Source of the DNA: Candidatus Latescibacterota bacterium | Lineage (GTDB): Bacteria > Latescibacterota > UBA2968 > GCA-2709665 | NCBI GenBank assembly: GCA_965205485.1 | Contig: OZ242180.1 | Location: 2,368,001-2,432,000, forward strand | Length of the DNA stretch: 64,000 nucleotides | Direction: 5' to 3' | Part shown: positions 11,349 through 59,300 of the stretch, piece after piece | How the letters are laid out: each line of letters begins with the position of its first letter | Numbering within the stretch: position 1 is the first letter of the stretch | Program-made: the position numbers and the translations under genes | Notes under the pieces: model-generated | What the model was told of the DNA's origin: nothing | Database searches by the model: none | What the model saw: the letters and a program-made list of their open reading frames with translations, nothing else

Positions 11349-11423
11349 ATCCCTCGCCCTGAGCTGCATCCGAACCTCCGGTCCGATCGGGGCGGGCGTT
11401 TCAGGACGCCGACGATCCTGCAA

Positions 11424-13541
11424 ATGGAGACCACGGAGTGCGCGGCCGCTTGTCTGGGCATCATTCTCGCCTATCACGGACGATGGGTACCCCTCGAAGC
11501 GCTGCGGGTACGCTGCGGCGTCTCCAGGGACGGCGCCAATGCCGCCAATATGTTGAATGCGGCGCGGGAATACGGCCTTATTGCCCGGGGTTTCCGCAGT
11601 CAGCACCAGCAATTGTTCGACGTCCCGTTTCCCATGGTGGTCTTCTGGGAGTTCAACCATTTCGTCGTTCTCGAAGGGATCAAAGGCGACAGGGTCTATA
11701 TCAACGATCCCGGCGAAGGCCCTCGAAGGATAACGATGCAGGAGTTCGTGCAGGGCTTCGCGGGCGTCTGCTTCGGTTTCGCGCCTTCGGCCGGGTTCAG
11801 TCCGGGCGGACAGCAGCCCAATCTGGTTCGCGGACTGCGCGACCGCTTTGGCGAGGCGGGAAGTCCGTTTGCGTTTGCGGCGCTGGCGACCCTGGCCCTC
11901 GTTGTGCCCGGCGTGGCCGTCCCGACCCTGATCAAGGTATTCATAGACGATGTACTCATCGGGCAGAACAGCGCCTGGGTGTCTCCGATGCTGATCGGAC
12001 TGGCCTTCGCGGCTGTTGTCCAGGGCGCGCTGACCTGGCTGCAGCGCATCCTCCTTGCAAGGATGGAGACCAAGCTGTCCGTTATCTCGACGGTGCGCTT
12101 TTTCTGGCACGTCGCGACGTTGCCGATGTTGTTCTTCAGCCAGCGCTATGCGGGTGACATCGCCAGCCGCGTGGCGTCGAATGACACGGTCGCACGGCTG
12201 CTTTCCGGCGAACTGGCCATCAATGCGATAAACGTATTCACGATGGTGTTCTATGCGCTGGTCATGTTATCGTACGACGTTCCGCTGACGTTGATCGCAT
12301 TGGGGATGGTCGCCATAAATCTGATCGTGCTGCGTTTCGCGGCACGCGCCCGCGAAAACGCCAACCGCAGGCTTCTCAAGGAGAAGGGCAGGGTTGCCGG
12401 CGCCTCCATAAACGGCATCAGGATCATCGAGACGTTCAAGGCCAACGGTACCGAGGACGATTTCTTCGCCCGATGGTCCGGTATCCACGCCAATGCGCTT
12501 CGCGCCCAGCAGAGCCTCGATTACGTATCGACCGTTGCGAACGTGGCGCCCGTTCTGCTCTCGGCGCTTACCGCCATCATCGTCCTGGGATACGGAGGTA
12601 TTCGCATCCTCGACGGGGCGCTTTCCATCGGCGGGCTGATCGCCTTTCAGAGTCTCACGCTGAGTTTCTCACGACCTGTTGAGGGTCTGGTTCGGTTCGG
12701 CGCCAGTCTACAGATGATCAGGGCCGATATCGGCCGGCTCGACGACGTCCTGAACTACGCCCCCGACGAGCGAACGCTCAGTGGCATCAACACGGGAGCG
12801 CCTGTATCGGACGCACCCGTACCCCGGGGTTCTATCGATCTCGAAGGCGTGACGTTCGGTTACAATGCCACGGATCCGCCCCTGATCGAGGATTTCAGCC
12901 TTTCCATCAGGCCGGGCCGCCGCGTGGCGCTGGTGGGCGCATCGGGAAGCGGAAAGTCGACAGTCGCCAGGATGGTATGCGGTCTGCTGACCCCCTGGTC
13001 CGGAACCGTGCGCATCGACGGTCAGGCATTCGAGGACGTCCCTCCCGCCCGTTTCGCCGAAATCGTGTCCTACGTCGACCAGGAGGTTGTCCTGTTCGAG
13101 GACAGCGTGCGGGAAAACGTCACGCTGTGGGACCCCGATATCGAAGAACGCGACGTGGTACAGGCGCTCAGGGATGCCGCGATCCATGACGTCGTCTCTG
13201 CAAGGCCGATGAAGTACGATTGCCCCGTCAGCGAGGGAGGGCGCAATTTCAGTGGCGGTCAGCGGCAGCGCCTGGAAATCGCGCGTGCGCTTGTGAGGAA
13301 TCCGGCCGTACTGGTGCTCGACGAGGCCACCGCCGCGCTGGACCCGATTACCGAGGTCGAGATCGACGACCACCTTCGACGCCGCGGATGCTCCTGCCTC
13401 ATCATCGCCCACAGGCTGAGTACCATCAGAGACGCGGACCAGATTGTTGTTCTCGACCGGGGCCGTATCGTCCAGCGCGGCACACACGACAGCCTGATCG
13501 CGAAAGACGGCCTTTACAGAACCCTGGTCATGTCGGATTGA
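11424..13541 (+). CDS. NHLP family peptidase-containing ABC transporter (C39/permease/ATPase); true start probably upstream of 11424
   Basis: (RTPTILQ)METTECAAACL, CGVSRDG, FWEFNHFVV, INDP; Walker A GASGSGKS; FSGGQRQRLEIAR. Confidence 0.93.
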   Translation: METTECAAACLGIILAYHGRWVPLEALRVRCGVSRDGANAANMLNAAREYGLIARGFRSQHQQLFDVPFPMVVFWEFNHFVVLEGIKGDRVYINDPGEGPRRITMQEFVQGFAGVCFGFAPSAGFSPGGQQPNLVRGLRDRFGEAGSPFAFAALATLALVVPGVAVPTLIKVFIDDVLIGQNSAWVSPMLIGLAFAAVVQGALTWLQRILLARMETKLSVISTVRFFWHVATLPMLFFSQRYAGDIASRVASNDTVARLLSGELAINAINVFTMVFYALVMLSYDVPLTLIALGMVAINLIVLRFAARARENANRRLLKEKGRVAGASINGIRIIETFKANGTEDDFFARWSGIHANALRAQQSLDYVSTVANVAPVLLSALTAIIVLGYGGIRILDGALSIGGLIAFQSLTLSFSRPVEGLVRFGASLQMIRADIGRLDDVLNYAPDERTLSGINTGAPVSDAPVPRGSIDLEGVTFGYNATDPPLIEDFSLSIRPGRRVALVGASGSGKSTVARMVCGLLTPWSGTVRIDGQAFEDVPPARFAEIVSYVDQEVVLFEDSVRENVTLWDPDIEERDVVQALRDAAIHDVVSARPMKYDCPVSEGGRNFSGGQRQRLEIARALVRNPAVLVLDEATAALDPITEVEIDDHLRRRGCSCLIIAHRLSTIRDADQIVVLDRGRIVQRGTHDSLIAKDGLYRTLVMSD

Positions 13542-44813: not shown

Positions 44814-46862
44814 CTATCGAAGCGGTTGTTTCACTCGATTGAAGTCAACCTTGTACCGATCGAGGGCCTTGAGCGCCTTGTTCCGGGGATGGGGATATAC
44901 GTCGCGTGACTTTCTGAAGGACATGACGGCGGCGTTTGTCCGGCCCTGATTCTGAAGCAGCCTTCCCTTCTGATAGTACAGCTCGGCAAGCGTCTTCTTC
45001 TTCAACGCTTCATGCCTGAGCATCTCCGCCCTGGTCAACCACTTTCCCACCTGCTCCCAGTTCGAGCTGTTTCCGTTGTCCAGTACGACCGAGGCCATAC
45101 CCAGAAGGCTCGCGTAACTGCCGTGTGCGAGCCTGAACGGTTCCTGCAATTGCTCGAACACCGGGTCCCCGGTAAAATATGCCAATCCCAGATAGCGCCC
45201 GTAGTGGAACAGCATTTCGTTCCGGCGGACCCGCTCCCAGCGGTCGGTGGGTTTCCGGTTGATGAGCTGTACGAAGAATTCTTCGCCGCGAGGATGGCGC
45301 TTCAGCTTGATCGTCCCCGGTTTCCCGCCCCTTGCAGCTTCCATCAGGAAGCCGTAGACGCGTAACTCACGGTTGGGATAGATATCGACGTCCAGGGGCA
45401 AGAAGATCGCCCGTTCGTTCGAATCGATAAACCGTTCGAGTACCGCATCCCTCTTCTTTGTCGACATGAACGGGTTGAACAGGCGTTCGCCGTATACGAG
45501 ACCCTGCAGATTGTACAATGTGACATCCGGACGGCGGTTTTCGACGTATCGATAATAGCCGATCGGCCCGGTTGTATCTCCGAAGACGAACAGGACAGCG
45601 TCTTCCGGCAAGAGGTCCAGCTGCATTTCAGCATGCCGCTCGGCGAAGTCGTTTTCGGCCCTGTCGTTTGGCTTCCAGTGGGATTGGACTGACCACCAGA
45701 CCAGGCAGACCCCGGCGAGCACAGCAGCAGAGATTCCTACCTTCGGACCGTACGGCGTTTTGTCTGTGAATTTTCCCTTCAGCCAGTGGCAGACACACTG
45801 TAGTCCGATGCCCAGCCACAACGCCAGAAGACCGTAACACAATATCGAATACGGCCGGAAGACCGCGACCTGGAAATAGTCAAAATCGAAGCGCAGCAGG
45901 ACGATCAGCACAATGCTGTTTGTAAGGAAAACCAGCAATCCCGATACCGCAATATCGGTTTGGCGCTTGCGAAACAGGAGCATCAGGCCGAGCACCGACA
46001 GCGCGAATCCCGGTAACGTCAATTGCCAAAGGAATTCGTTTCCGAGCCACTGCATGAACCTGAACCGGTCATTCCATCCGGCGCTTGGGCTGATGTCGAC
46101 TTCGACATACCCCTGCCGGCTGAAGTAGAACCAGAACGCCTTCAGGGAATCGATCGAACCGTAGAAATTGATCAGAACGTCCTGGTGAGACCGCCAGACC
46201 ATCCAGGCATAGGGCAATACCGCGCAGCATGCGAGAACGGCGAGGAGCAGCGGAAGCTTCCTGTAGAGATTCCGCCGAACGGTAAAGGCCAGCACCGCGA
46301 GTCCGGGTGCTGACAGCACCGTGAGCGGCACGTGATTGGCCAGGCTAAATCCGTAAGCCGCGGCGGCGGCAATCCAGATGCCGGTGCGGTGAGGGTGACG
46401 GACGCCGTACAGCATCAGCGCGTAGATGCCAAAGAAAAACAGCGCATTGAGCGTGTAGACCTCGGTGACGACGGCCTGAGACCAGAAATGCTCTGAGGCG
46501 GCAAACAGCACGGAGGCTGTCAGGGCGGGAATGGGCGAGGCGCCGATCAGACGGATGCAAATGTAGACGCAGCCGCACGCGAGGGCGCCCAGCGTCGCGC
46601 TGGACAGATGGCCGAGGACGGCGACGCTGCCGAAGGGAAACTGCGTGAAGAGGTAGACGATCAGCGTAAAGAGAGGATATCCCGGCGGATGGGCGACACC
46701 CAGGTGCGCGCCGGCCATCAGGAACAACCCGTCGTCTTCCAACACGACGGTGCGAGGCATCGTCAGAACGTACAGAACCAGCGGCGCCAGGATAGAGGCA
46801 ACCAGAGCCGTGCCATCGCGAAACGGCTCGATCGATCCGCGCCTGGAGTGCGCGCGCATCAT
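44814..46862 (-). CDS. DUF2723/TMEM260-like GT-C membrane glycosyltransferase with C-terminal TPR-like helices
   Basis: EDDG, LGVAHPPGYPLF, FWSQAVVTEVYTLN, many TM segments. Confidence 0.85.
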   Translation of the reverse strand: MMRAHSRRGSIEPFRDGTALVASILAPLVLYVLTMPRTVVLEDDGLFLMAGAHLGVAHPPGYPLFTLIVYLFTQFPFGSVAVLGHLSSATLGALACGCVYICIRLIGASPIPALTASVLFAASEHFWSQAVVTEVYTLNALFFFGIYALMLYGVRHPHRTGIWIAAAAAYGFSLANHVPLTVLSAPGLAVLAFTVRRNLYRKLPLLLAVLACCAVLPYAWMVWRSHQDVLINFYGSIDSLKAFWFYFSRQGYVEVDISPSAGWNDRFRFMQWLGNEFLWQLTLPGFALSVLGLMLLFRKRQTDIAVSGLLVFLTNSIVLIVLLRFDFDYFQVAVFRPYSILCYGLLALWLGIGLQCVCHWLKGKFTDKTPYGPKVGISAAVLAGVCLVWWSVQSHWKPNDRAENDFAERHAEMQLDLLPEDAVLFVFGDTTGPIGYYRYVENRRPDVTLYNLQGLVYGERLFNPFMSTKKRDAVLERFIDSNERAIFLPLDVDIYPNRELRVYGFLMEAARGGKPGTIKLKRHPRGEEFFVQLINRKPTDRWERVRRNEMLFHYGRYLGLAYFTGDPVFEQLQEPFRLAHGSYASLLGMASVVLDNGNSSNWEQVGKWLTRAEMLRHEALKKKTLAELYYQKGRLLQNQGRTNAAVMSFRKSRDVYPHPRNKALKALDRYKVDFNRVKQPLR

Positions 46863-47302
46863 CCGGTACCGTCCTGCACGTTATCCCCAGCCTCGGGAGG
46901 GGCCTCGCGAAATGTCCAGAGAGAATTGACGGAATAGTTCAGCACACCGGCGGGGGCGATCGCACACCCCTGCAGGATTACCAGCGGCACATCCGCGAAC
47001 TGTACGGAAAGCAGGACGAACGTGCCGTAACTCAACATTAGCGACACGAGCGATACAAGATGATATTTCAACCCCCGAATCCGGCGCTTTCCTGGCAGCG
47101 AGCGACTCCCGAAGGTCCAGTAGTTGTTGAGCAGAAAATTGGAGACGATGGACAGCTCGATCGCAATCGGCGACGCCAGCAGCGCGTGTACGCCGAGATT
47201 GAGCATCAATTGAAACGAACCGAGATTCACAACCACGCCGCCAAGGCCCGTGAGCGCGAATTTTCCGAATGTCGGAGAAAGTAATTTTCCGAATAGACGC
47301 AT
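46859..47302 (-). CDS. GtrA family membrane protein (start uncertain)
   Basis: KFALTGLGGVVVN, ELSIVSNFLLNNYWTF, LNYSVNSLWTF. Confidence 0.8.
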   Translation of the reverse strand: MRLFGKLLSPTFGKFALTGLGGVVVNLGSFQLMLNLGVHALLASPIAIELSIVSNFLLNNYWTFGSRSLPGKRRIRGLKYHLVSLVSLMLSYGTFVLLSVQFADVPLVILQGCAIAPAGVLNYSVNSLWTFREAPPEAGDNVQDGTG

Positions 47303-47576
47303 GGAATTCGATGGGATGCGGGTGGTGAACAGATACGGTACGGAACGCGCCTGAGAACCCTGGCGTTCGAAGAGATTCAACAAGCGTGCGTACCACGGCG
47401 TACGCAGCGATGGTGTCTCCAAGTTTAACGATATCCGCTCTCCTCGGCAACAGTTACGGGATGTCGAATGTGGCGGGTCGTACCCCGCTTAGTTTTTCGT
47501 TGACTTCACAGACATCAGACAACTGACCGTCGAACGCGCGCCGAATTCATACATCCGACCGCTTCTGTCGAGACAC

Positions 47577-47608
47577 ACACCGGTGGCTCTTGCCAACGGT
47601 GTTTTTTT
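47577..47608 (+). terminator. Rho-independent terminator-like hairpin
   Basis: ACACCGGTGGC-TCTT-GCCAACGGTGT followed by a T run. Confidence 0.6.
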
Positions 47609-47639
47609 ATGTGGTGACGCTACTTCTCAGGTTCGGAGC

Positions 47640-47686
47640 GGTGCAAGATGCAACATGGTTTCATCCGGGTGACGCAGAATGGAACA
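47640..47686 (+). promoter_or_regulatory. Putative enhancer-binding-protein sites (two copies)
   Basis: GGTGCAAGATGCAACA (47640) and GACGCAGAATGGAACA (47671); same motif at 57105 and 57124. Confidence 0.5.
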
Positions 47687-47784
47687 CATCGTTCAGCAAC
47701 CGGACGTCGACAAACGGGCTGCAGGGAGGCTGGCGATTTTTTCTCTTTTGCACTCCAGACAGTTAGGTCCCGGGGTATTGTGAG

Positions 47785-47799
47785 TGGCACAATCCTTGC
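47785..47799 (+). promoter_or_regulatory. sigma54 (-24/-12) promoter upstream of the precursor array
   Basis: TGGCACAATCCTTGC (GG-N10-GC). Confidence 0.7.
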
Positions 47800-48027
47800 G
47801 AGTCCAATTCGTCGAAGGAGGCGCGATACGTGCACGAGACGCGTGGCTCGATGTCTCCAATGATTCGCATCAAGAGCAGCGCCAAAGGGGGTGTGTCGAG
47901 ACCGCGAAATGACACGCATAACCCTTTGTAAATCAAGACATTTTGGCGGCGCACATCAGCATACGGTTTATCAGGAAACGGCATCGTTTGGTTGTCGCCG
48001 GGATGTCTACGAAAGGAGGTGATTGAC

Positions 48028-48231
48028 ATGAAGAGACGCATTGCATCACGCCTTGTAGACACGTCCGGAATTCCGTCTCGGTTGCCCATCCGGACGGAGG
48101 ACCTGACTGACGGGCAGACGGCTCGCATCTCCGGTGGAGCCATACGCTGGCGGGCGATACTGAAAGATGTGTTCGGCATCGATCTGGGCACGAATTTGCC
48201 GGAAACAGGCGCGGCTGGTCCATTGCTGTAG
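48028..48231 (+). CDS. Double-glycine leader peptide precursor P1
   Basis: AAAGGAGGTGA RBS; 37-aa leader ending EDLTDGQTARISGG; core AIRWRAILKDVFGIDLGTNLPETGAAGPLL. Confidence 0.78.
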   Translation: MKRRIASRLVDTSGIPSRLPIRTEDLTDGQTARISGGAIRWRAILKDVFGIDLGTNLPETGAAGPLL

Positions 48232-48315
48232 TATTCGAGTTGCATACCAACCAGGTATGTTGCCTGGAAAATCAAACAGGATGTCATACGGACACAATAG
48301 AAAGGAATTGACGAA

Positions 48316-48504
48316 ATGACGGACCAGATCCTTGCCACGTCAGCTCAGGCATCTGTGGCCTGCGCTCAACTCCCAGAACAAGAAATCGGCCTGGCACGTC
48401 GTGAGATGGTGAATACATCGGGGGGTCTTCTACCACCAATTCCGCTTCCTTTAGCCCGTCTGATTGCCGAGATCATCAAGGATTACCTTGACGACGGGGA
48501 TTGA
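48316..48504 (+). CDS. Double-glycine leader peptide precursor P2
   Basis: AAAGGA RBS; 37-aa leader ending GLARREMVNTSGG; core LLPPIPLPLARLIAEIIKDYLDDGD. Confidence 0.78.
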   Translation: MTDQILATSAQASVACAQLPEQEIGLARREMVNTSGGLLPPIPLPLARLIAEIIKDYLDDGD

Positions 48505-48735
48505 AGTGGGGGCCAACAGGACGAAGTCTCTCCCATTCGCCGGCCTCCGCTGTTGTGAATTCGAACTGAATCTTCAACGACCTCGTTTTTCCAATCTGAT
48601 CTTCTCCAATAGCGAAGACGAAGCCGCAAGGGTCGTCAGCGATCTGAAAACTCAACGAGTTGTGGCGATTCTGGGGAGATCCGAAAACGGCTACTTTCTG
48701 CGCATCGTTGAAGCGGCCAGAAAAAACGTGCATTA

Positions 48736-48936
48736 ATGGCAGAGCGGATTAGTTTTAGGTTTGGGGTGAGTTCTGTGGCCTGCCATCAACCTATCGGAGG
48801 TCTCGGTGCCTCCGGCGCGGTCGGAGATCGCGTAAACGGTTTAGCCGAAATTTTCAGATCCATAGCCGTCTCGTGTTGCCAGCGTTTCGGCGAAGCTACA
48901 AACACAACGGACGTTAACTTCGGGATAATCGACTGA
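48736..48936 (+). pseudogene. Possible decayed paralogue of precursor P2
   Basis: I5, SVAC 13-16 and Q18 in the same register as P2; no intact GG motif or clear RBS. Confidence 0.3.
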
Positions 48937-48953
48937 CTCTACAGGAGGTAATC

Positions 48954-49238
48954 ATGACTCATGCATTGGCGAATCCGATGGCGACTGATGGCGGTCTTAT
49001 GGTCGTAGACTGCAATCCGCTTCAGCGGCAGGAAGAAACGCTTAACAGCGGGCAAATGGGAGACACACAGGGCGGAATCTTGATTGGACCGGCCCTTTAC
49101 TTGATTGCAAAAGCCGCTGCACCCTATGTGGCGGGTGCTGTTACTGCAATCGTCGTTGGAGTGGTTCTCGCTGAGATTGCGCCGAACAACGGGTGCAATA
49201 GCTGTACGTGCAACACAAGGCCACCTGGACGCCGTTAG
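48954..49238 (+). CDS. Double-glycine leader bacteriocin-like precursor P3
   Basis: AGGAGGT RBS; 41-aa leader ending TLNSGQMGDTQGG; hydrophobic core with CNSCTC tail. Confidence 0.82.
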   Translation: MTHALANPMATDGGLMVVDCNPLQRQEETLNSGQMGDTQGGILIGPALYLIAKAAAPYVAGAVTAIVVGVVLAEIAPNNGCNSCTCNTRPPGRR

Positions 49239-49315
49239 GTTTCGTGCGTGGGATAGGAGCGATTTGTTCGCTCCTATCCCACAAAGACCAATAGACACAA
49301 CACTGGAGGTCCCGG

Positions 49316-50128
49316 ATGAAGGACATCATCCACACACGATCGCGGAGGGGTTGGGTCTTCGCGGCCATATCGTACACGCTGTTTTCCGTTGTGCCTGCTC
49401 TGCTGATTCTCAGATACGTCATTCAAATCGATCTTGCGATCCTGACAGCGGTCCTGGCCAGTCAGGCAGTGTCGTTTATAATCTTCCGAAAAAAGCTCTA
49501 TGAAACTGCAGCGGTAATGATGAGCGCGGTCCGCGGATTACTTGAGTCGAGTCCCGGCGCTATTGAACCAGGCCAGGATTCTAACGTCACCGAAGTGATT
49601 CTTGAAAAACAAGAGATGTACAGTTTATACTTTTTGATGTTCTGGATTTCGGGAATGTCTGTCATCGGGGTAGATGCTTTGCTTCCGTGGGCAATAGAAC
49701 TGCGATTTCCTCTTGTTGATCTATGGAAATTGATTGGAGGATTAATCGCCTTGTATGTGATTCACGAAGCGCTTCACGGTCTCGCCGCGATGGCGTGGGG
49801 AAAAATTCCATTTAGTTCGCTGCACTTTGGAATCAACGTGCGATTAATGGCCTTTTACTGCCACGCTGACAAACCGATGACACTGAGCGCATACCGGGCA
49901 TTCGCGCTACTGCCGTTAATCGTAACAACACCTGCCGCGGTTTTAGTTCTGTCGTTTGATCCGGCGATCTGGTCGGTCTTGATACTATGTTCCACGTTTG
50001 CCGGGGGCGCGGGAGATGTGATGGTTTTTTTCAAGGCTCGCAGGTATGACAATGACAGTTGGATTCAGGATCATTTGTCAGAAGTGGGTTTCACAATGTT
50101 TCCCGCAGGGGAGACACCCGCACGCTAA
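49316..50128 (+). CDS. DUF3267 (zincin-like HEXXH) membrane protein
   Basis: GGAGG RBS; IHEALHG, FG...FYCH, ALLP, GGAGD, IQDH..EVG. Confidence 0.85.
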   Translation: MKDIIHTRSRRGWVFAAISYTLFSVVPALLILRYVIQIDLAILTAVLASQAVSFIIFRKKLYETAAVMMSAVRGLLESSPGAIEPGQDSNVTEVILEKQEMYSLYFLMFWISGMSVIGVDALLPWAIELRFPLVDLWKLIGGLIALYVIHEALHGLAAMAWGKIPFSSLHFGINVRLMAFYCHADKPMTLSAYRAFALLPLIVTTPAAVLVLSFDPAIWSVLILCSTFAGGAGDVMVFFKARRYDNDSWIQDHLSEVGFTMFPAGETPAR

Positions 50129-50249
50129 GCGACCGTAAACGGAACCGCTACAAGGGTATCCGGCAGGCGCATTACAAGAACATGGATGACTTCCACGACG
50201 TTCGGTTAAGGTAGTTCCACCTAACATCCCGCCGGCATCTACAATCGAT

Positions 50250-50851
50250 ATGGATTCACAAGAGATCACCAACAGGGATTCCCACGAGGTCCTCACGATC
50301 CGGACAGGCGCGCTTGCGATGTTCCTGCTTTCGCTTGTGATGTTTTTTGTCGCGGTAAACGTGGCCCGTGTGGTGCACTCGGGCTTGTCCGGATGGAATA
50401 TTGACCTCCAGCCGGACAGTTTCAATCTGTGGGTGTTTCTGGGAAGTCTCGTCTTGCTGGTGGTTGTCCACGAAGCGTTGCATGCCCTGGCCGCATTGCT
50501 GTGGGAAAGGCGCATTTAAGTTCGATTCGTTTCGGGTACAATTTGAAATGGCTCATCGCCTACTGTCATTGCTCGAGCCTGATGAGGAAGCGCGCCTTTC
50601 GCAGATTCCTGCTGTTGCCCCTCGCGGTCACAGTGCCGTTTGCCGGTCTTTTCCTTCTGTTGTACCCGTTTTTGTGGACACTCCTGCTCTTCAGTTTGAG
50701 TTTTTCTGCATGTGCGGGGGATGTGTTGATTGATTTCAAGGTCCAGAATTTGCCCGCCGACCTGTGGGTTCAGGATCACCCTTCGGAAATCGGATGCTAT
50801 GTCTGGCCTGAAGGGCAATCTCCGCCAGGTGGTGGAGTGTATCGGGGGTAG
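50250..50851 (+). pseudogene. Second DUF3267 protein, split by a 1-nt frameshift at ~50503-50505
   Basis: VHEALHA in one frame continues as GKAHLSSIRFG..AYCH..CAGD..VQDHPSEIG in another. Confidence 0.8.
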
Positions 50852-51276
50852 CGTTCACTGCGCTAGGACTGTGGTGGTTTGCCCGGGTTTCACAGACCGC
50901 GCAACGTGTTTCCGATGGCCAGGATCCGCTTGCGGATGCCGAGACCGATGCAGTTTAGGGCCTGATCGGTTGCTCTTGGCCGTGATCATAGTCGAATCGG
51001 ACAGGGGTTACTCAAGCCTGGCGTTTGGTCGATAATACGCAATGGAATACTAAATATAATATGTTTCAATACTAATTATAGTATGTATCGGCAAGTATTC
51101 GCGGACTTCGGGCGTGGCAAGCTAGAATTGAGCGGCTTGTTAAGGATTGCCCTTCGAGGCCGGAAAATCCCGGATCTCCGGCAGGAAGAACCCCTGGTAA
51201 CCGGCGAATCGCCCTCGGTCGGAAATCGATCTACATCCGGAAACGCCAATAATCCTTCCATTTCGGGAAAGGAACT

Positions 51277-54200
51277 ATGGACGTCTTTACCCACTTTTCT
51301 CAGGCGTCGAATCAAACGGAATCCGTACGGTTTCGCTTCGGAGAGATTGTAATTGTACAAGGGGCGCCTGGCGATGCGTTCTACATGCTAAAATCGGGCC
51401 GGCTGCGAGTAATCAAACGGAATACGGACGGCCAACCTGAAACCGTGGGATTTCTTTATGCCGGCGACCACTTTGGCGAGGGCGCGCTGTTGACGGGGCA
51501 GGGACATCGGGCGGTGGTGCGAGCCGCGGAGGATTCCGTGGTGCTGAAGGTGTCGCGGGATGAATTCCTCGATGTATTGAAGAAGGAGCCGGAGCTGGAG
51601 GCCTATCTGCAGGACCAGGTTGCGAATATCGCGTACCGGGACTTCACGAGGTATCTGAAGGGGTCCGTTTCCGGGGATGGCATGCGGGAGCTGTTCCAAC
51701 GTCTGAAGCGAGAGGAGGTCGCAGCGGGCGCGTCGTTCACGCAATCCGGTCACACGAGCGAGCGTTTCTGCGTGGTGGGCAGCGGCGGGTTGGACGTGAT
51801 GCTTGAGGACGGAAGCACGCACTCGCTCGACGCCGGGGATTTTTTCGAAGAGACGGATTCTACTGTCGGCGGCTCACGGACGATCCGCAGCCGGGTGAAT
51901 AGCGTTATCTACGTCTTGGAAAAGCCTGACCTGGAAAGCCTGAGTCAATCAATCCTTGCATTAACGCCCTTGAGAGAGATGGCACGGCGATTGTACAAGG
52001 AACCGGCACCGGACAGGTCGATGTCCCGCGAGATTCAATCGGGCGGAATTCACGTCCACACGGAAACGGCGGCGGTGAACAACGCCGTTGCGGCGAACGG
52101 CGGGCCATACGATGTCCCGAATTCCAGGACATCTGACGAGCAGCGCAGAACATCGACGGCGTTTCGTTTTCCGTTTCTGAAACAACACGATCAGTCCGAC
52201 TGCGGGGCGGCGTGTCTGGGGATGATCTGCAAGTATTTCAGGATGCCGATCGGGTTGAACCGGCTGCGGGACATGTGCAACGTGTCGCGGGACGGCACGT
52301 CGATGGCGGCATTGGCAGAAGCGGCGGAGACGCTTGGATTTGTCACGCGGGGCGTGCGCACCGGCTACGAAGCGTTGATGCGAACGGAATTGCCGGCCAT
52401 TCTGCACTGGGAAGGCAACCATTTCGTTGTCCTGTATGAGATCAACAAGAAGGGTGTGAAAATCGCGGATCCGGGCGTGGGTATTCGCAGATTGGCCCGG
52501 AGGGAGTTCGAGAAGAGCTGGACCAACATGGCGTTGCTCCTTGAATACACGGATCAAGTGGCGGAGAATGAACCCTCCAGATCTTCCTTCAAGCGTTTTT
52601 TCCCGTTGATCAAGCCCTATACGGCCATTCTGGTCGAGGTCCTGCTGGCGTCCCTGGTACTCAGCCTGTTGGGCCTTGCCTCGCCGGTTTTTACGCAAAC
52701 TATAGTCGACCAGGTGCTGGTGCATCACGACGAGGACCTTCTGAACCTGATGCTCGCGGGTATGGTCGTCGTGGCGCTCTTCCAGATGGGGACATCGACG
52801 CTGCGCGCGTATCTGATCGGATATATCAGCGCCAGGTTGAGCCTCACGATGTTGTCGCGGTTCTACCGCCATCTGCTGGGCCTGTCCATGCGGTTCTTTG
52901 CGTTGCGCCGCACCGGCGATCTGACCACGCGATTCAAGGAAAACGCGACGATCCAGCGGCTCTTCACCGACACGACCATTTCGGCGATCCTCGATTTTAT
53001 CATGTTGTTCGTCTATCTTGGGCTGATGTTCTACTACAATTGGGAGTTGACGCTCGTGATGTTGATTTTCGTGCCGCTCTCGGTAGGGCTCACGCTGATC
53101 TATACCCCGATCCTGAAGTCCTTCAGCCAGCGGGCATTTCTCGCTCGCGCCGAACAGTCCTCCGTACTGATCGATTCGCTGCACGGAATCGACGTTGTGA
53201 AAGCCGAAGCGGTCGAACGGGTAACGAGATGGCAGTGGGAGGGCAAATTTACAAGGGAAATCCAGATCGGATTCCGACGATTGAAAATGGAGATGCTGTT
53301 CGGCGCAGGCGGTAGTATGATCAATCTCCTGAGTTCCACGGTGATTCTGTGGTATGGCGCCTCTCTGGTTATCGACGGTGAGTTGTCAGTCGGTCAATTG
53401 ATGGCTTTCAATGCCCTTATCGGCAACGTGATGGGACCCATAATGGGATTGATCGGCGTGTGGCCCGAGGTTCAGGAAGCCCGGGTCGCCCTGGACAGGC
53501 TGAATGACGTCTATGACTCTAAGATGGAAAGTGCGCGCCAGCGCGGACACGGCCTGAGACTGAAGCAGGTTGAAGGCCGTCTGATTTTCGAAAACGTGTT
53601 CTTCAGGTACGGCGTTGGAACCGATGAACCCTACGTCTTGAACAACATCGACCTGGAACTGAAGCCTGGACGAAAGGTCGCCATCGTCGGCCGCAGCGGC
53701 GCCGGAAAAACCACGCTCGTCAAGCTCGTGCCCCGCCTGTTCGATCCCACGGAAGGGCGCGTGCTGCTGGACGGGATGGATATGCGCGATTTCGACCCTC
53801 ACTGGCTGCGCCGCCAGGTGGGCATGGTTATGCAGGACTCTTTTCTATTCAGCGGAACCATTGCGGAGAACATCGCGGTCGGAGAACCGGACGCGAATAT
53901 GGACCGCCTCCTGGAAGTCGCGAAATTGGCATGCGTTCACGACTTCGTAAACGAGATGCCCCTGGGATACGAGACGAAGGTGGGCGAACAGGGAATCGGA
54001 TTGTCCGGCGGCCAGCGGCAACGTGTTGCGATCGCGCGCGCGCTGTACCGCGATCCGGGAATACTGATCTTCGACGAAGCGACAAATGCGCTGGATACGG
54101 ACTCGGAGGCTGCGATCCAGACCAATCTGGCGCTGTTCCTGGAAAATCGCACGTCCCTGGTCATCGCCCATCGCCTGAGCACGGTGAGGGATGCGGACAC

Positions 54201-54312
54201 GATTCTCGTAATGGAAAAGGGCCACATTCTCGACACCGGCACGCACGAAGAACTGATGCTTCGACGGGGTCTTTACTATCACATGTGCAGCCAGCAGTTG
54301 CAGCTGACCTGA
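51277..54312 (+). CDS. Peptidase-containing ABC transporter with N-terminal cNMP-binding domains (cNMP-cNMP-C39-TMD-NBD)
   Basis: GDHFGEGAL..HRA; KQHDQSDCGAACL, HWEGNHFVV, IADP; GRSGAGKT, LSGGQRQR. Confidence 0.93.
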   Translation: MDVFTHFSQASNQTESVRFRFGEIVIVQGAPGDAFYMLKSGRLRVIKRNTDGQPETVGFLYAGDHFGEGALLTGQGHRAVVRAAEDSVVLKVSRDEFLDVLKKEPELEAYLQDQVANIAYRDFTRYLKGSVSGDGMRELFQRLKREEVAAGASFTQSGHTSERFCVVGSGGLDVMLEDGSTHSLDAGDFFEETDSTVGGSRTIRSRVNSVIYVLEKPDLESLSQSILALTPLREMARRLYKEPAPDRSMSREIQSGGIHVHTETAAVNNAVAANGGPYDVPNSRTSDEQRRTSTAFRFPFLKQHDQSDCGAACLGMICKYFRMPIGLNRLRDMCNVSRDGTSMAALAEAAETLGFVTRGVRTGYEALMRTELPAILHWEGNHFVVLYEINKKGVKIADPGVGIRRLARREFEKSWTNMALLLEYTDQVAENEPSRSSFKRFFPLIKPYTAILVEVLLASLVLSLLGLASPVFTQTIVDQVLVHHDEDLLNLMLAGMVVVALFQMGTSTLRAYLIGYISARLSLTMLSRFYRHLLGLSMRFFALRRTGDLTTRFKENATIQRLFTDTTISAILDFIMLFVYLGLMFYYNWELTLVMLIFVPLSVGLTLIYTPILKSFSQRAFLARAEQSSVLIDSLHGIDVVKAEAVERVTRWQWEGKFTREIQIGFRRLKMEMLFGAGGSMINLLSSTVILWYGASLVIDGELSVGQLMAFNALIGNVMGPIMGLIGVWPEVQEARVALDRLNDVYDSKMESARQRGHGLRLKQVEGRLIFENVFFRYGVGTDEPYVLNNIDLELKPGRKVAIVGRSGAGKTTLVKLVPRLFDPTEGRVLLDGMDMRDFDPHWLRRQVGMVMQDSFLFSGTIAENIAVGEPDANMDRLLEVAKLACVHDFVNEMPLGYETKVGEQGIGLSGGQRQRVAIARALYRDPGILIFDEATNALDTDSEAAIQTNLALFLENRTSLVIAHRLSTVRDADTILVMEKGHILDTGTHEELMLRRGLYYHMCSQQLQLT

Positions 54313-54339: not shown

Positions 54340-55743
54340 ATGGCGGAACCGCGACAATTGGCGTCTTCGGGAGCGTCGTCGCCGATGCATCTGCCCGCGC
54401 GGGAGCAGGTTTCGGAGGAGATGCAGGCGTTTTTCGGGTCGCTGAGGCCGTTCTGGGGGCGGGCGCTGCTCTACGTCGTTCTTCTGTTTGTCGGGATCGC
54501 GGTGTTCTGGGCATGGCGGGGCAAGGTGGACGTTGTGGCTTCGGCGCCGTTTCAACTGGTGCCGATGGGGAAGGTGAAGACGTTGCAGGCGCGCCGCGGC
54601 GGCGAGATCGAGCACATCGGCGTCAGCGAGGGCGATCGCATCGAAGAGGGGCAGTTGCTGTTCAAGCTGAAGTCTTGGGAAACCTGGGGAGACCTTCGAG
54701 AGCTGGAACAGGCGGAAATGGCGTATCAACAGGCCGGATACGACTTCAAACAGGTATTGCCCCGGAGATCGGAATTGAACCTGGAGACGATCGCGTCGCT
54801 CGAAAAGCGACTGGCCGTTCTGCAGCGGTTCATGGCGGCGCATCAGAACGCCCTCAGGGACTACCACGACGACGCGGGTGATGCCGAAGGATCCGGAAGT
54901 GACAATTCCGAGGCGGAACTGCAGGCACAGATCGGCTTCAGGCAGGCGGAAATCGATCACTTGAAGCAGGACTATCTTCAGCAGAAGGCATTGTTCCAGA
55001 GGAAACTGATCAGCCGGGTGGATATCAATCAGGCGCGTGTACGGTACCTGAGCGCACTCGCAGCGCTTCCGGGACGCATGTCGGAAATATACAGGAACGA
55101 AACGGCCGTCCAGGACCTCAAACGTCAGATTCTGGAGGCGCGAATCGAGCACGGCCGCGAGGCGTCAAAGATGAAACACGCGTACGAAACCGCGCGATTG
55201 AGACTGGAGCAGGCGCGCAAACGCGTCGACCGCCGGCTGGAAGCGGAGTCGGACCTCATATTGGCGCCGGAATCCGGCATTGTAACGCGGGTGGAGGTGA
55301 ATGCGCTCGGACAGGTTATCAGCAAAGGGCAGGCGCTGGTTTCAGTAGCGCCGGCGTCCGCTCCGATCGTCGCCGAGCTTACGGTATTGAACAGGGACGT
55401 GGGCATGCTGAAACCGGGTCAGATCGTGAAGCTGAAATACGACGCCTTCGCATTCCAGGATTTCGGAATCAAACGCGGGTGGCTCAAACAGATCTCGCCG
55501 GATGCCGTCATCGATGAGATTGTCGGACCGGTTTTCAGGGGTGTCGTTGAATTGGAAGAAACCACCGTGGACGTAAAGGGACAGGAGAAACCGCTCCGGT
55601 TCGGCATGAAGGGCACCGCGGAGATCATGACGGACCGCCAATCCGTCCTGCTGATGCTTCTGAGTCCTCTGCGAAGGCTTTACGAGTCAGCATCGTACGA
55701 CGCCGTAAAGTCGGCGGCAGCTCAGCCGGAGGATTCGTTATGA
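54340..55743 (+). CDS. HlyD family secretion adaptor
   Basis: Single TM, lipoyl half-motifs, coiled coil, LKYDAFAFQDFG, ISPDA, GMKGTAEI. Confidence 0.92.
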   Translation: MAEPRQLASSGASSPMHLPAREQVSEEMQAFFGSLRPFWGRALLYVVLLFVGIAVFWAWRGKVDVVASAPFQLVPMGKVKTLQARRGGEIEHIGVSEGDRIEEGQLLFKLKSWETWGDLRELEQAEMAYQQAGYDFKQVLPRRSELNLETIASLEKRLAVLQRFMAAHQNALRDYHDDAGDAEGSGSDNSEAELQAQIGFRQAEIDHLKQDYLQQKALFQRKLISRVDINQARVRYLSALAALPGRMSEIYRNETAVQDLKRQILEARIEHGREASKMKHAYETARLRLEQARKRVDRRLEAESDLILAPESGIVTRVEVNALGQVISKGQALVSVAPASAPIVAELTVLNRDVGMLKPGQIVKLKYDAFAFQDFGIKRGWLKQISPDAVIDEIVGPVFRGVVELEETTVDVKGQEKPLRFGMKGTAEIMTDRQSVLLMLLSPLRRLYESASYDAVKSAAAQPEDSL

Positions 55744-56555
55744 CTCCTCGCGCGGAAGATGGGAACCCGATTCCTTCCCGGGAAATCACGCTCGTCCAGG
55801 TCAATGGCGCCGGTGTGTCGCTGAGTCAGGTCGTCCGTCAACTGGGGGTCGTCGACAAACTCGATTTCTTCGGTGAATTCGCGCGCAGAGAACTCGTGCG
55901 CCAGCTTGCGGTCCGGGAAGGCATCCGTTCAAAACCGGAAGACATCCAGCGCGACGTGGACGACTGGCGCTATCGACATCGCCTGGAACGTGTTGAAGAC
56001 ACGGAAGCGTGGCTCCGGTCCCGAGGCATTACCCTCGGCGACGTCGCAGAAGACGCTCAGGCGAAACGGTTGGAGCGTGCGTTGTCCGACAAGGTCGTGG
56101 ACAGAAGGATCCAACCGTACTTCGCTCAGCACAAGCTGGATTTCGACGAGGCGGAAGTCAGCTGGATTTTTCACCGTAATAGAGGCGTGATAGAAGAAAT
56201 CGGGCTTCAGGCCATAGAAGAAGGCGCTGATTTTTGCAGAATGGCCCGCGAGTACTCACAAGATGAACGCACGCGTCCGTCCGGCGGGTTTGTCGGGCGC
56301 GTTCGACGCGGACAGTTGCCGAAGGGTATTGCGGCGCGCCTCTTCGCCGCCGAACCTGGTGAAGTTTTCGGACCCGAAAAGGCATCGGGCGGCTTCGCGT
56401 TGTATATGCTGCAGCGGAACTTTCCGGCAGTCCTTGATGATAGCGTTTCAAATGAGATTCGCGATACGCTATTCAGTCAGTGGCTGCAGAGTGAGTTTCA
56501 GCGGGCGGAAATACACTACCCGATCTGGGAAACCGCGAAGGCGGTCCAGGAGTAG
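55740..56555 (+). CDS. PpiC-type peptidylprolyl isomerase-related maturation protein
   Basis: WRYRHRL..WL..GITL, DFCRMAREYSQD..GGFVG, EVFGP; coupled to HlyD. Confidence 0.82.
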   Translation: MTPRAEDGNPIPSREITLVQVNGAGVSLSQVVRQLGVVDKLDFFGEFARRELVRQLAVREGIRSKPEDIQRDVDDWRYRHRLERVEDTEAWLRSRGITLGDVAEDAQAKRLERALSDKVVDRRIQPYFAQHKLDFDEAEVSWIFHRNRGVIEEIGLQAIEEGADFCRMAREYSQDERTRPSGGFVGRVRRGQLPKGIAARLFAAEPGEVFGPEKASGGFALYMLQRNFPAVLDDSVSNEIRDTLFSQWLQSEFQRAEIHYPIWETAKAVQE

Positions 56556-56990: not shown

Positions 56991-57104
56991 ATGCCCTTCG
57001 CTGTTGGTCCTCCTCAACATCCATCGCGTGTCAACGTCTTCCGTTGCAGTGCCAAGCCGCTGACTTTGTCGTAAGACGCCTACAACATTGGGTCGGCGCC
57101 AGGC

Positions 57105-57139
57105 GTTGCAGAATGCGCCATACGATGCAAAATGCATCA
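57105..57139 (+). promoter_or_regulatory. Putative enhancer-binding-protein sites (two copies)
   Basis: GTTGCAGAATGCGCCA and GATGCAAAATGCATCA. Confidence 0.5.
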
Positions 57140-57332
57140 CATGTTAACGCGCGCGTTCCAGCTACGCAAAAAAAGCACGCAGACACGGGTTTCATCTCAC
57201 GTCCGCGCCGGCGTACCGGTATTTTCCTTGAAGCGTCGAGACGCAAATCGCTACACGTCCGCTTCTCTTCAAAGCGCCTCACCATTTTAGCCAAATGCTT
57301 TATATACTTTAAGTTATTCGCTTATTCAAATC

Positions 57333-57348
57333 TGGCTCGCATTTTGCA
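57333..57348 (+). promoter_or_regulatory. sigma54 promoter upstream of the CPBP protease pair
   Basis: TGGCTCGCATTTTGCA (GG-N10-GC), preceded by an AT-rich tract. Confidence 0.65.
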
Positions 57349-57506
57349 TATCGACCTGGATTGTTCGACACCCAAACAGGACACCGAATGCGACCGCGGC
57401 AAGAGGACTGCCGGAGTTGCGGGCTCGATGAAATCCGCCGCTCGCGCCGGAATGCGGGGTCGTTGGATCCACTTTCGTCCGGTCGCATCAATAGGGGAGG
57501 GAATAA

Positions 57507-58361
57507 ATGGCGTATCCGAATCTGAAGCAGTCCGTCTGGCTGATGGTCTTGCTTGTGGTGGCAACGAGCGCGCTGGGGATGATGCTTCATTTCCTCGGCG
57601 CCGCGTCGGACAATGAAACACGAATCTTCGAATACCTGGGATGGATTCTAAACCTTCCCGTTTTCGCTCTACTCGTGTTATATGCGCAGCGTCGATCCGG
57701 TCGGCCCTGGTCGGACGTCCTGCTCTTAAGGACAGTACCGTGGAAAATGTACCTCCCACTTACTGTCTCGATCCTGGGATTCGGCATTGTCATATCCGAC
57801 CTTGCAACCTTCGTGCAATATCTGATTCCAATTCCCAAAGTATACCTCGAGATATTCCTTGATCTAATGGGGAGCAAAACACCTCTTGGTCTCGCGTTTT
57901 ATGTTCTCGCGATTCACGCGCCGCTTACCGAGGAAGTTCTCTGCAGAGGCGTTATTCTTGGCGGGCTGTTAGCCAACGGTACCCGCCGGCGTGCTATTTT
58001 TTGGTCTGCAGTGCTGTTCGCCGCGATGCATATGAATCCATGGCAGTTTCCAGGATCCTTGATACTGGGTCTTGTATTCGCGTGGTGGGTCGTACAGACA
58101 GGTTCTTTGCTGCCTGCGTTATTCGGTCACGCTCTGAACAATTTTCTGTCGTTGATTTCGGTGCGTATGGAGATATTCCGTCCTATCGAGGATTGGGGTG
58201 TTGTGGAGTTTCTGCCATGGTGGCTGCTTGTGTGCGGTATTGTACTGGCTGCGGTCGGTCTGCGGTGGTTCAATCAAATGGCAAAACGCGAAGGGACGCC
58301 GCTGGCTCCACCGGCTGAACCGGAGCCGGTCGTAACGGCGGTGGCCGAGAAATCAGTCTGA
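57507..58361 (+). CDS. CPBP (CAAX/Abi) intramembrane glutamic endopeptidase
   Basis: APLTEEVLCRG, FAAMH, GHALNN. Confidence 0.92.
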   Translation: MAYPNLKQSVWLMVLLVVATSALGMMLHFLGAASDNETRIFEYLGWILNLPVFALLVLYAQRRSGRPWSDVLLLRTVPWKMYLPLTVSILGFGIVISDLATFVQYLIPIPKVYLEIFLDLMGSKTPLGLAFYVLAIHAPLTEEVLCRGVILGGLLANGTRRRAIFWSAVLFAAMHMNPWQFPGSLILGLVFAWWVVQTGSLLPALFGHALNNFLSLISVRMEIFRPIEDWGVVEFLPWWLLVCGIVLAAVGLRWFNQMAKREGTPLAPPAEPEPVVTAVAEKSV

Positions 58362-58445
58362 CGGCGCAACACGCGGGGCGACACTCGACTTGGGTCCGGA
58401 TTGTTCGACTTGCCGGCATCTCCTCACCCAAACAGGAGGGAATAC

Positions 58446-59300
58446 ATGGCGTATCCGAATCTGAAGCAGTCGGTCTGGCTGCTGATCTTGTTTTTCCTGA
58501 TAAGCGCGGCACTGGGTGTACCGGTTGCCATCCTGGGTTTCATCCTGGACCAGACTTTGCACGGGAGTCCGTACGTAATCTGGCTATTAACGCTCATCAG
58601 TTTCGTTCTGGTGGCTGCTTACTCGAAGCGCCGAACAGATCGGACCTGGCGAAATATCCTGCAATTCAGGCCCGTATCCTGGCAACTGTCCCTGCCGCTC
58701 GGGGTGTCAATCATCGGCCTGGCAATCGTCGGTTCAGACCTGGGAAACCTCATGCGACATCTGATACCGGCACCTGAAATAATCGTCAACGCATTGAAGG
58801 AGCTGGCGGACAAGGAAAGTCCCTTTGGGCTGTCTTTTTATGTCATGGTGGTTCAGGCTCCCCTGACTGAGGAAATCCTCTTCAGAGGCATCATTCTCGG
58901 CGGCCTGCTGACCCACCGAACGCGGAACCGGGCGATCGTCTGGTCCGCGGTCATGTTTGCGCTGTTTCATGCGAACCCGTGGCAATTCCCGATCGCCCTG
59001 ATATTGGGGATCGTATTCGCGTGGTGGGTTGTTCAAACCGGGTCCCTGGTACCGGCGATTGCAGGGCATGCGCTGAACAATTTTCTGGCATTGACGGTTG
59101 CGCATCTGGAATTATTCGGACCGATTGATAGTCCCGATACGGTGGTGTACTATCCGTGGTGGTTGCTTGCCGGCGGTATCGTCCTGGCTGCGGTCGGCTT
59201 GCGGTGGTTCAATCAGATGGCAAAACGCGAAAGTTCATCGCTCGAAAACCGCGTTCAACCGGAGCAGGCCGATGCGCCTGATAACCGGGAACCGGTCTGA
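58446..59300 (+). CDS. CPBP (CAAX/Abi) intramembrane glutamic endopeptidase, tandem paralogue
   Basis: APLTEEILFRG, FALFH, GHALNN; same MAYPNLKQSVWL start. Confidence 0.92.
   Translation: MAYPNLKQSVWLLILFFLISAALGVPVAILGFILDQTLHGSPYVIWLLTLISFVLVAAYSKRRTDRTWRNILQFRPVSWQLSLPLGVSIIGLAIVGSDLGNLMRHLIPAPEIIVNALKELADKESPFGLSFYVMVVQAPLTEEILFRGIILGGLLTHRTRNRAIVWSAVMFALFHANPWQFPIALILGIVFAWWVVQTGSLVPAIAGHALNNFLALTVAHLELFGPIDSPDTVVYYPWWLLAGGIVLAAVGLRWFNQMAKRESSSLENRVQPEQADAPDNREPV

Follow-up and report, generated by a model that had tools for sequence, protein, structure and literature searches.

We analyzed a 64,000-nucleotide stretch of a Candidatus Latescibacterota genome (GenBank assembly GCA_965205485.1, contig OZ242180.1, positions 2,368,001 to 2,432,000 of the forward strand), referred to below as the window. 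Three small genes, P1, P2, and P3, lie in it one after the other, between a divergent GtrA-family gene and the gene of a large ATP-binding cassette (ABC) transporter. Each encodes a short protein made of an N-terminal leader that ends in a double glycine (GG) and a C-terminal core. The leaders constitute a family of the double-glycine type that is new, has no name, and is restricted to one lineage, whereas the cores are unrelated to one another. The three genes are accompanied by genes for an HlyD-family membrane fusion protein, a PpiC/SurA-like protein, and membrane proteins of the DUF3267 and CPBP/CAAX types; coordinates are given in Table 1.

Precursor genes of the locus

P1, P2, and P3 are real genes. 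All three start with ATG, placed 6–9 nucleotides (nt) 3' of a ribosome-binding site (RBS) of the GGAGG/GAAAGGA type. For comparison, we used the loci of 20 relatives, chosen by orthology of the transporter (62–95% identical), which together with the window make 21 loci. The relatives' loci also contain P1-, P2-, and P3-type genes upstream of the transporter, in the same order and with the same RBS; within the genus, the leaders keep constant lengths of 37, 37, and 41 amino acids (aa), respectively, with GG at the same place. P1 orthologues with a 37-aa leader are found in 15 other loci, and 18 P2-type genes are spread over 12 of the 21 loci, often two per locus. The pairwise ratio of nonsynonymous to synonymous substitution rates (dN/dS) is 0.35, 0.29, and 0.33 for the leaders of P1, P2, and P3, and 0.21, 0.21, and 0.40 when same-type cores are compared, the last value coming from three pairs only. 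The G+C content of the locus is 51–54%, against 59.9% for the 5.13-Mb genome.

Little else of recognizable kind was found around the three genes. Four antisense open reading frames (ORFs) and a plus-strand ORF at 48464–48736 have no Pfam family, and no Rfam family was detected in 47300–51400 at E up to 1. Promoter and terminator scans returned sites no more numerous than in shuffled sequences, and a comparison of P3 with solved structures gave no match at E up to 10. One further ORF, between P2 and P3 (48736–48936), was considered as a working fourth precursor and rejected, as it lacks the LP...L...GG part of the leader and resembles P2 over its N-terminal 18 residues only. It shares with the P2 gene a 19-nt direct repeat (48352–48370 and 48772–48790, 89% identical) but matches no Pfam family, and its tblastn match to P2 (E 0.13) is insignificant when taken alone; in relatives, the same position is occupied by a second P2 copy. 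The ORF is probably a decayed P2 paralogue.

The stem-loop directly 3' of P3 has a folding energy of -33.6 kcal/mol (z -7.8), and none of 200 shuffled sequences folds as well. Its sequence is unique in the genome. In most loci of the same genus, the last, P3-type precursor gene is likewise followed by a hairpin of equal strength, whose stem sequence differs. Comparable hairpins that stabilize or attenuate transcripts occur in other precursor operons; by analogy, the P3 hairpin is likely such an element.

Table 1. Features of the P1–P3 locus, with positions counted from the first letter of the window.
Feature	Position	Strand	Properties
Divergent GtrA-family gene	46859–47422	-	Flanks the precursor genes on the side away from the transporter
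P1 precursor gene	48028–48231	+	67 aa; leader 48028–48138 (37 aa, ends ISGG); core 48139–48228 (30 aa, 'IRW' type)
P2 precursor gene	48316–48504	+	62 aa; leader 48316–48426 (37 aa, L-12 xxx E-8 M-7 ... SGG); core 25 aa
Possible decayed second P2-type copy	48736–48936	+	66-aa ORF; N-terminal 18 residues similar to the beginning of the P2 leader
P3 precursor gene	48954–49238	+	94 aa; leader 48954–49076 (41 aa, ends TQGG); core 53 aa
Perfect 15-bp stem-loop	49248–49282	+	Directly 3' of P3; no U tract
Z1, DUF3267 membrane protein (S2P clan, HExxH)	49316–50128	+	270 aa; PF11667 58 bits (cut-off 27.1)
Z2, second DUF3267 gene	50250–50851	+	-1 frameshift in a G run near 50504; halves in two frames relative to the intact L016 orthologue
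Peptidase-containing ABC transporter (PCAT)	51277–54312	+	1011 aa; two cNMP-binding domains, C39 peptidase, transmembrane domain, ATPase
HlyD-family membrane fusion protein	54340–55743	+	TIGR01843 201.6 bits (cut-off 208.65); in 21 of 21 loci
PpiC/SurA-like protein	55740–56555	+	271 aa; in 21 of 21 loci
CPBP/CAAX-type (Rce1-like) intramembrane protease gene	57507–58361	+	PF02517 68.7 bits
CPBP/CAAX-type (Rce1-like) intramembrane protease gene	58401–59300	+	PF02517 73.5 bits

One leader family on unrelated cores

An earlier note on this DNA, made from the letters alone, had proposed a leader family shared by the three precursors on the basis of residues counted back from GG. Its observations are correct on the translations: leucine stands at -12 and -19 in all three leaders, with T/M/M at -7 and I/T/T at -4 in P1/P2/P3; the P1 and P2 leaders are both 37 aa long and have I5, S13, LP19-20, L26, and SGG in common; and P2 and P3 share V-x-C-x-x-L-x-x-Q-E-x-x-L. 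The cores of 30, 25, and 53 aa are unrelated, as claimed, and cannot be aligned with each other.

The proposed check, a hidden Markov model (HMM) built from the three leaders, was run with filters off against 93,138 stop-to-stop ORFs of the genome itself and 5,656 ORFs of the 20 relatives' loci. In this search, 49 ORFs of the relatives outranked the best other ORF of the own genome (12.7 bits, E 0.49); all 49 lie on the plus strand at ABC loci and, in the gene maps, upstream of the transporter. Leader profiles built per type align with hhalign end to end and without gaps, at 94.3% for P1-P2 (E 1e-7), 97.3% for P2-P3 (E 2.8e-11), and 96.4% for P1-P3 (E 1.1e-9), and in all three comparisons, every one of 100 column-shuffled controls scored below the real pair. 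An alignment of the 49 leaders (A1; consensus M..R....P......C..LP.REE.L....MA..SGG) shows no variation at L-19 and G-2, and 90% or more of its sequences have L-12 and G-1. When used to search the own genome, it retrieved just P1–P3 at 53–59 bits, the next best match being at 13 bits. Profile alignments, shuffled controls, and model scans thus agree that the leaders are one homologous family without a curated name. The leaders in the window are mutually only 24–30% identical; P1, P2, and P3 are old paralogues, each with its own orthologues in the genus.

Standard resources do not recognize the family. No Pfam family was found for P1–P3, nor any NCBIfam family at E up to 10, a search in which the HMMER filters drop most weak matches, and none of the curated leader and bacteriocin models (TIGR01847, TIGR03949, ComC PF03047, Bacteriocin_IIc PF10439, NHLP, and Nif11) reached its cut-off. 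Scanned singly, four of the 49 members match the class IIb bacteriocin model TIGR03949 weakly (best E 0.0074), one matches TIGR01847 (E 0.22), and one MccV (E 0.083), none of them near the cut-off. The language-model clusters nearest to P3 are class IIb/Bacteriocin_IIc at 0.87, which we treat as a lead only. In a collection of 5.8 billion proteins, the family matches 114 clusters (90% identity), none with a Pfam domain, and the six named rows among them all read 'hypothetical protein'. Among 1.84 billion representatives at 50% identity, 71 matches had E values of 0.001 or less. Re-examination of 66 of them showed 63 small proteins that match at the N-terminus and three larger repetitive proteins, which were discounted, leaving ~68 credible clusters. 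The distribution is narrow. Of 168 genomes in the phylum, 41 have leader-family members; these belong to two families of a single order (17/21 and 23/31 genomes), against 0 of 115 genomes in the remaining families. The P1 type, searched with its own alignment (A5), is present in 13 of 185,579 species genomes, all metagenome-assembled and titled Candidatus Latescibacterota or Gemmatimonadota bacterium. Searches of open-access literature on DUF3267, TMcin, TIGR04500, cNMP/C39, CAAX immunity, and Latescibacter bacteriocins turned up nothing on the leader family.

The cores are more diverse than the leaders that precede them. Mean pairwise identity within the genus is 0.62, 0.55, and 0.42 for the leaders of P1, P2, and P3, and 0.41, 0.38, and 0.29 for the cores. 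Charge and hydrophobicity of both parts were judged by eye from the sequences. The P2 core begins rich in proline and ends in an acidic tail, with a proline at core position 3–5 in 18 of 18 P2 cores. The P3 core consists of a long hydrophobic stretch followed by C-x-x-C-x-C, in which two of the three cysteines are invariant, and a basic tail; C84, C86, E74, and G69 are invariant across 15 aligned P3a-type proteins. The C-terminal tails of the P3a type are rich in cysteine and basic, with an invariant C-x-C and up to five cysteines, then K/R. These cysteines could form disulfides, bind metal, or be lipidated.

P1-type proteins give the clearest view of how leaders and cores combine. The 84 distinct proteins carry four core types, 'IRW' (22), 'DAGLG' (32), acidic 'GCFP' (28), and 'IWD' (2). 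The leaders of IRW and DAGLG carriers agree at 25.2 of 37 positions between types, equal to the 24.8 and 26.1 found within types; in one pair, the leaders are identical at 37 of 37 positions and the cores differ. The nearest leader carries another core type in 24 of the 84 proteins and is tied in 16 more. Two population variants break at this very point. A contig from sequencing run X4 matches the window as far as 48139, where the P1 core starts, and then runs on in frame into a DAGLG-type core; a contig of run X1, which may be the source sample, joins 48139 to 48942, omitting the P1 core and P2 (one contig in each case). The X1 junction ends just before the P3 RBS, and the resulting gene order resembles that of locus L015. 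Since cores are swapped on like leaders and natural variants break there, the junction of leader and core is a recombination point. One subgroup of P1-type leaders (proteins P0081–P0114) ends in ISGA; its cores are extremely acidic, start with DGCFPVPEDD, end with PWPWPM, and are unlike the usual cationic bacteriocins.

The earlier note had read a conserved leader on hypervariable cores as the signature of a diversifying peptide library. This holds for the family at large, with its very diverse cores (~68 clusters at 50% identity) and the four core types on P1-type leaders. It does not hold for the window itself, where the precursors are long-separated paralogues with discrete core types under purifying selection (dN/dS 0.2–0.4).

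Exporter, chaperone-like protein, and membrane proteases

C39 domains of known PCATs cut at a GG, GA, or GS site and recognize a leader helix of the form Leu-12-x3-Glu-8-Leu-7, whose side chains at -4, -7, and -12 pack into a groove (PMC6363468). In P1 and P2, GG occupies residues 36–37, and in P3, residues 40–41. The corresponding helix residues are L-12, E-8, M-7, and T-4 in P2; L-12, Q-8, M-7, and T-4 in P3; and L-12, Q-8, T-7, and I-4 in P1. On the side of the enzyme, a Pfam scan of the transporter identified Peptidase_C39 (135.7 bits; residues 298–424) and, N-terminal to it, cNMP_binding in two stretches (98 bits). Against PCAT1 and LahT150, the C39 part gives an alignment at E 1.8e-21 in which the catalytic Cys, His, and Asp are conserved. 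Some distant members of the family depart from GG at the aligned site: in L031, L033, and L025, as well as in P0147, P0151, P0153, P0154, and P0172, it is replaced by G-A, G-E, G-K, or D-G-L. Either the site is shifted in these proteins or they are cut by another protease.

Leader and exporter travel together. The ABC-HlyD-PpiC module is constant in 21 of 21 loci, and at least one leader-family member lies on the transporter's strand in every one of them, the loci having been chosen by ABC orthology. Across 40 relatives, which as kin are not independent, leader matches occur in all 31 genomes with a full-length transporter orthologue, in both genomes with fragments of one, and in one of the seven without an orthologue. 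Together, the leader features, the C39 triad, and this strict linkage make cleavage after GG followed by export the best-supported mechanism for P1–P3, which we infer from sequence. Other transporters of this kind were also noted. A second C39-ABC transporter lies in the window at about 11394–13526 and belongs to a different peptide cassette; in the sister family (G022, G023, G027, G035, and G039), up to four paralogous cNMP-PCAT modules occur per genome, with leader-family genes near each.

The PpiC/SurA-like protein matches Rotamase at 44 bits and TIGR04500 at 83.2 bits, the latter below the cut-off of 180 and over model positions 87–336 of 340. By eye, it has no N-terminal signal peptide or membrane segment. 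Its predicted structure is of low confidence (mean predicted local distance difference test score (pLDDT) 59, below 50 in the parvulin part); the best matches, SurA, PrsA, and Cj1289, at template-modeling (TM) scores of 0.2–0.4, served as a consistency check only. On this low-confidence model, the protein looks like a chaperone of the SurA/PrsA type. TIGR04500 is the nearest named family; MirC, its sole characterized member, is a chaperone partner, not a proven isomerase, encoded in a PCAT-containing cluster (PMC13097080). The proline-rich P2 core had earlier been offered as a plausible substrate of the PpiC protein. That argument fails, since the PpiC-like gene is present with or without a P2-type gene, in 21 of 21 loci as opposed to 12 of 21, and both the modeled likeness to SurA and PrsA without a visible signal peptide and the role of MirC (PMC13097080) speak for a chaperone. 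The proline kept in all P2 cores is the one point that favors the link.

Both DUF3267 matches of the genome fall in the P1–P3 locus. In Z1, the residues H150, E151, and H154 of the HExxH motif and the distal D234 (GD) are invariant across 13 orthologues, which suggests that Z1 is probably an active enzyme; its predicted model (mean pLDDT 42.1) is too poor for fold comparison. Z2 looks like a real pseudogene and not an assembly error, since contigs of two public runs contain no indel at the break; both differ from the window by T>G at 50428. In 12 of the 21 loci, the last precursor gene, of the P3 type, has a DUF3267 gene immediately behind it. Z1 orthologues also persist in seven loci without a P3a-type gene (L016–L020, L024, and L026).

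CPBP matches number five in the genome, of which two are in the locus. In the g1 loci (the window and 14 relatives' loci, L015–L027 minus L024), one to three CPBP copies follow the PpiC gene in 14 of 15, and at least one CPBP gene lies upstream of the transporter in 17 of all 21 loci. The number and order of DUF3267 and CPBP genes vary from locus to locus, while the export module stays constant. In the blp locus of Streptococcus pneumoniae, CPBP/CAAX genes and other membrane proteins are treated as immunity genes (PMC4860687). The persistence of Z1 orthologues without a P3a partner, together with the variable accessory arrays, favors an immunity role here too. The first CPBP gene is overlapped at its start by a 190-aa ORF (57044–57616) that has no family; matches of relatives to this ORF are fragmentary and lie in different frames, and it may be a decayed gene.

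Interpretation in light of known peptide systems

We consider it probable that P1–P3 are precursors with one unnamed GG leader family, that the C39 domain of the cNMP-C39-ABC transporter would cleave these leaders behind GG, and that the cores would then leave the cell through the transporter and HlyD. The locus as a whole is likely multi-peptide and bacteriocin-like, a familiar type of system, here in an uncultured lineage and with an unusual set of accessory genes. In such a system, the cores would act as membrane-active peptides, P1 being amphipathic, P2 anionic, and P3 hydrophobic with a Cys-rich basic tail. The DUF3267 and CPBP proteases, whose number varies with the precursor set, may be immunity factors, processing factors, or both. 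The cytoplasmic SurA-like protein would chaperone the precursors, the two cNMP domains would gate export via a nucleotide signal, and the hairpin after P3 might raise the precursor transcript relative to that of the downstream genes. The bacteriocin-like character is suggested by the weak TIGR03949 matches, the class IIb lead for P3, the blp-like CPBP and membrane-protein genes, and the confinement of DUF3267 to the locus.

The known systems closest to the locus are the GG-leader substrates of PCATs such as PCAT1, LahT, and ComA. They share with P1–P3 the GG end, Leu-12, and another hydrophobic residue, at either -7 or -4 (PMC6363468), and their genes likewise adjoin a C39-ABC gene with the Cys/His/Asp triad; the HlyD partner is in common with Gram-negative type I systems. 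The P1–P3 family differs in its long leader (37–46 aa) with an N-terminal part of its own (C-x-x-L-P-x-R-x-E-x-L), and its locus in that no curated leader model reaches the cut-off and the transporter carries two N-terminal cNMP domains. Pneumococcal blp and similar class II loci resemble it in having several GG peptides beside CAAX/CPBP and membrane 'immunity' genes, and blp also in its strain-variable gene content and leaders recombined with different cores (PMC4860687). Unlike blp, the P1–P3 locus has no quorum-sensing kinase or regulator, belongs to an uncultured host of the Gram-negative type, and includes DUF3267 genes, a SurA-like protein, and many acidic cores. A SurA-like, chaperone-type protein without an export signal beside a PCAT is also found in the graspetide clusters that encode TIGR04500/MirC (PMC13097080); the protein in our window scores 83 bits against the cut-off of 180, and its locus has no ATP-grasp enzyme partner.

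Several observations weigh against this interpretation. P1, P2, and P3 match no curated bacteriocin or leader model, and the core of P2, like those of many relatives, is by eye strongly acidic, which is unusual for bacteriocins. Each leader has two of the three canonical hydrophobic knobs, threonine replacing the third at -7 in P1 and at -4 in P2 and P3, and in some distant members, G-E, G-K, or G-L stands at the aligned site, where C39 may not cut. No regulator and no outer-membrane factor gene is present among the annotated neighbors. As for immunity, TmcP, the one DUF3267 protein that has been characterized, removes the leader of the membrane-embedded TmcA and is not an immunity protein (PMC13712780), and SilX, a CAAX protease of a bacteriocin locus, conferred no immunity (PMC9298176).

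The TMcin system (TmcA/TmcP/TmcE/TmcBC/TmcD) suggests a different division of labor, in which P3 and other members with hydrophobic cores would be matured in the membrane by a DUF3267 protease, leaving C39 to act on P1 and P2 or the transporter to serve in export alone. In TMcin, as at the P1–P3 locus, a DUF3267 gene lies beside a precursor whose leader is long and whose core is hydrophobic, with conserved cysteines, and TmcP removes the leader of TmcA, which bears a transmembrane helix (PMC13712780). The position of the DUF3267 gene behind the P3-type precursor, the invariant HExxH and distal Asp of Z1, the absence of DUF3267 elsewhere in the genome, and the long hydrophobic stretch and conserved cysteines of the P3 core all fit. 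We nevertheless hold this reading to be unlikely. By homology and by its GG context, the P3 leader belongs with the P1 and P2 leaders; the exporter is no TmcBC-type pump but a PCAT whose triad is intact; and the P3a cysteines stand two apart (C84 and C86) as opposed to about 25 in TmcA, where C70 and C95 form a loop-closing disulfide (PMC13712780). Moreover, Z1 orthologues that persist without a P3a-type gene are more like orphan immunity genes, Z2 is frameshifted in the window, and no TmcE-like or DsbA-like gene was recognized among the annotated neighbors, where small membrane ORFs were not searched exhaustively. TMcins are also described from Gram-positive bacteria only (PMC13712780).

The peptides could instead be secreted signals, pheromone- or morphogen-like and not antimicrobial, released through a nucleotide-gated PCAT. 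HetC of Nostoc PCC 7120 has the same cNMP, C39, and ABC order with conserved catalytic residues, binds guanosine tetraphosphate (ppGpp) in vitro, and is thought to export a regulatory peptide (PMC10986499). The acidity of many cores would suit such a role, as would the two alternative P1 core types on interchangeable leaders, which recall pherotypes. The two transporters are not built alike in every respect: HetC has one cNMP domain, compared with two at the P1–P3 locus, where an HlyD gene is adjacent, and no GG-peptide gene is found near HetC (PMC10986499), whereas the P1–P3 transporter has candidate substrates directly upstream. No sensor kinase or response regulator was found among the neighbors, and the CPBP and membrane-protein arrays, the multiple co-encoded peptides, and the weak class IIb similarity fit bacteriocin loci better, so that we give signaling little credence.

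A hybrid of these pathways can also be imagined, in which an N-terminally extended GG leader and the cytoplasmic SurA-like chaperone would serve a PCAT gated by its two cNMP domains, DUF3267 (S2P-type) and CPBP intramembrane proteases would act on cores with membrane helices, and the leader would double as a handle for swapping cores, a Gram-negative counterpart of TMcin. We regard this as a doubtful and speculative combination.

It is highly improbable that the likeness of the leaders is convergence imposed by a single C39 domain, with neither common descent nor a family behind it. The best-conserved columns, L-12 and GG, are indeed those read by the C39 domain (PMC6363468), and an identity of just 24–30% among the window leaders would be compatible with such an origin. 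However, the gapless alignment extends over 34–37 columns and takes in the N-terminal 20 residues, beyond the zone known to be recognized; the leaders have L-19 P-18 in common and are of equal length; and relatives carry leader types that stand between P2 and P3. That P1–P3 are chance open frames in an intergenic stretch, as their shortness and want of a database family might suggest, has practically no standing, given the strong RBS, syntenic orthologues in which start codon, GG site, and stop codon are all conserved, dN/dS values under 0.4, the 114 homologues in public data (clustered at 90%), antisense ORFs without Pfam families, and the lack of Rfam matches.

We thus favor C39 cleavage and export of bacteriocin-like peptides, and the locus has a bearing on several wider questions. 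It places DUF3267 proteases, so far characterized only in Gram-positive TMcin clusters, in a double-glycine locus of another phylum, and it shows a leader/core junction that serves as a recombination point in natural populations. In contrast to HetC, which has no known substrate, its cNMP-fused PCAT has candidate substrates next to it, so that control of export by cNMP domains becomes a testable question. Finally, since the standard Pfam and NCBIfam models miss the family (~114 clusters at 90% identity), its leaders could extend genome mining of sponge- and marine-associated uncultured bacteria.

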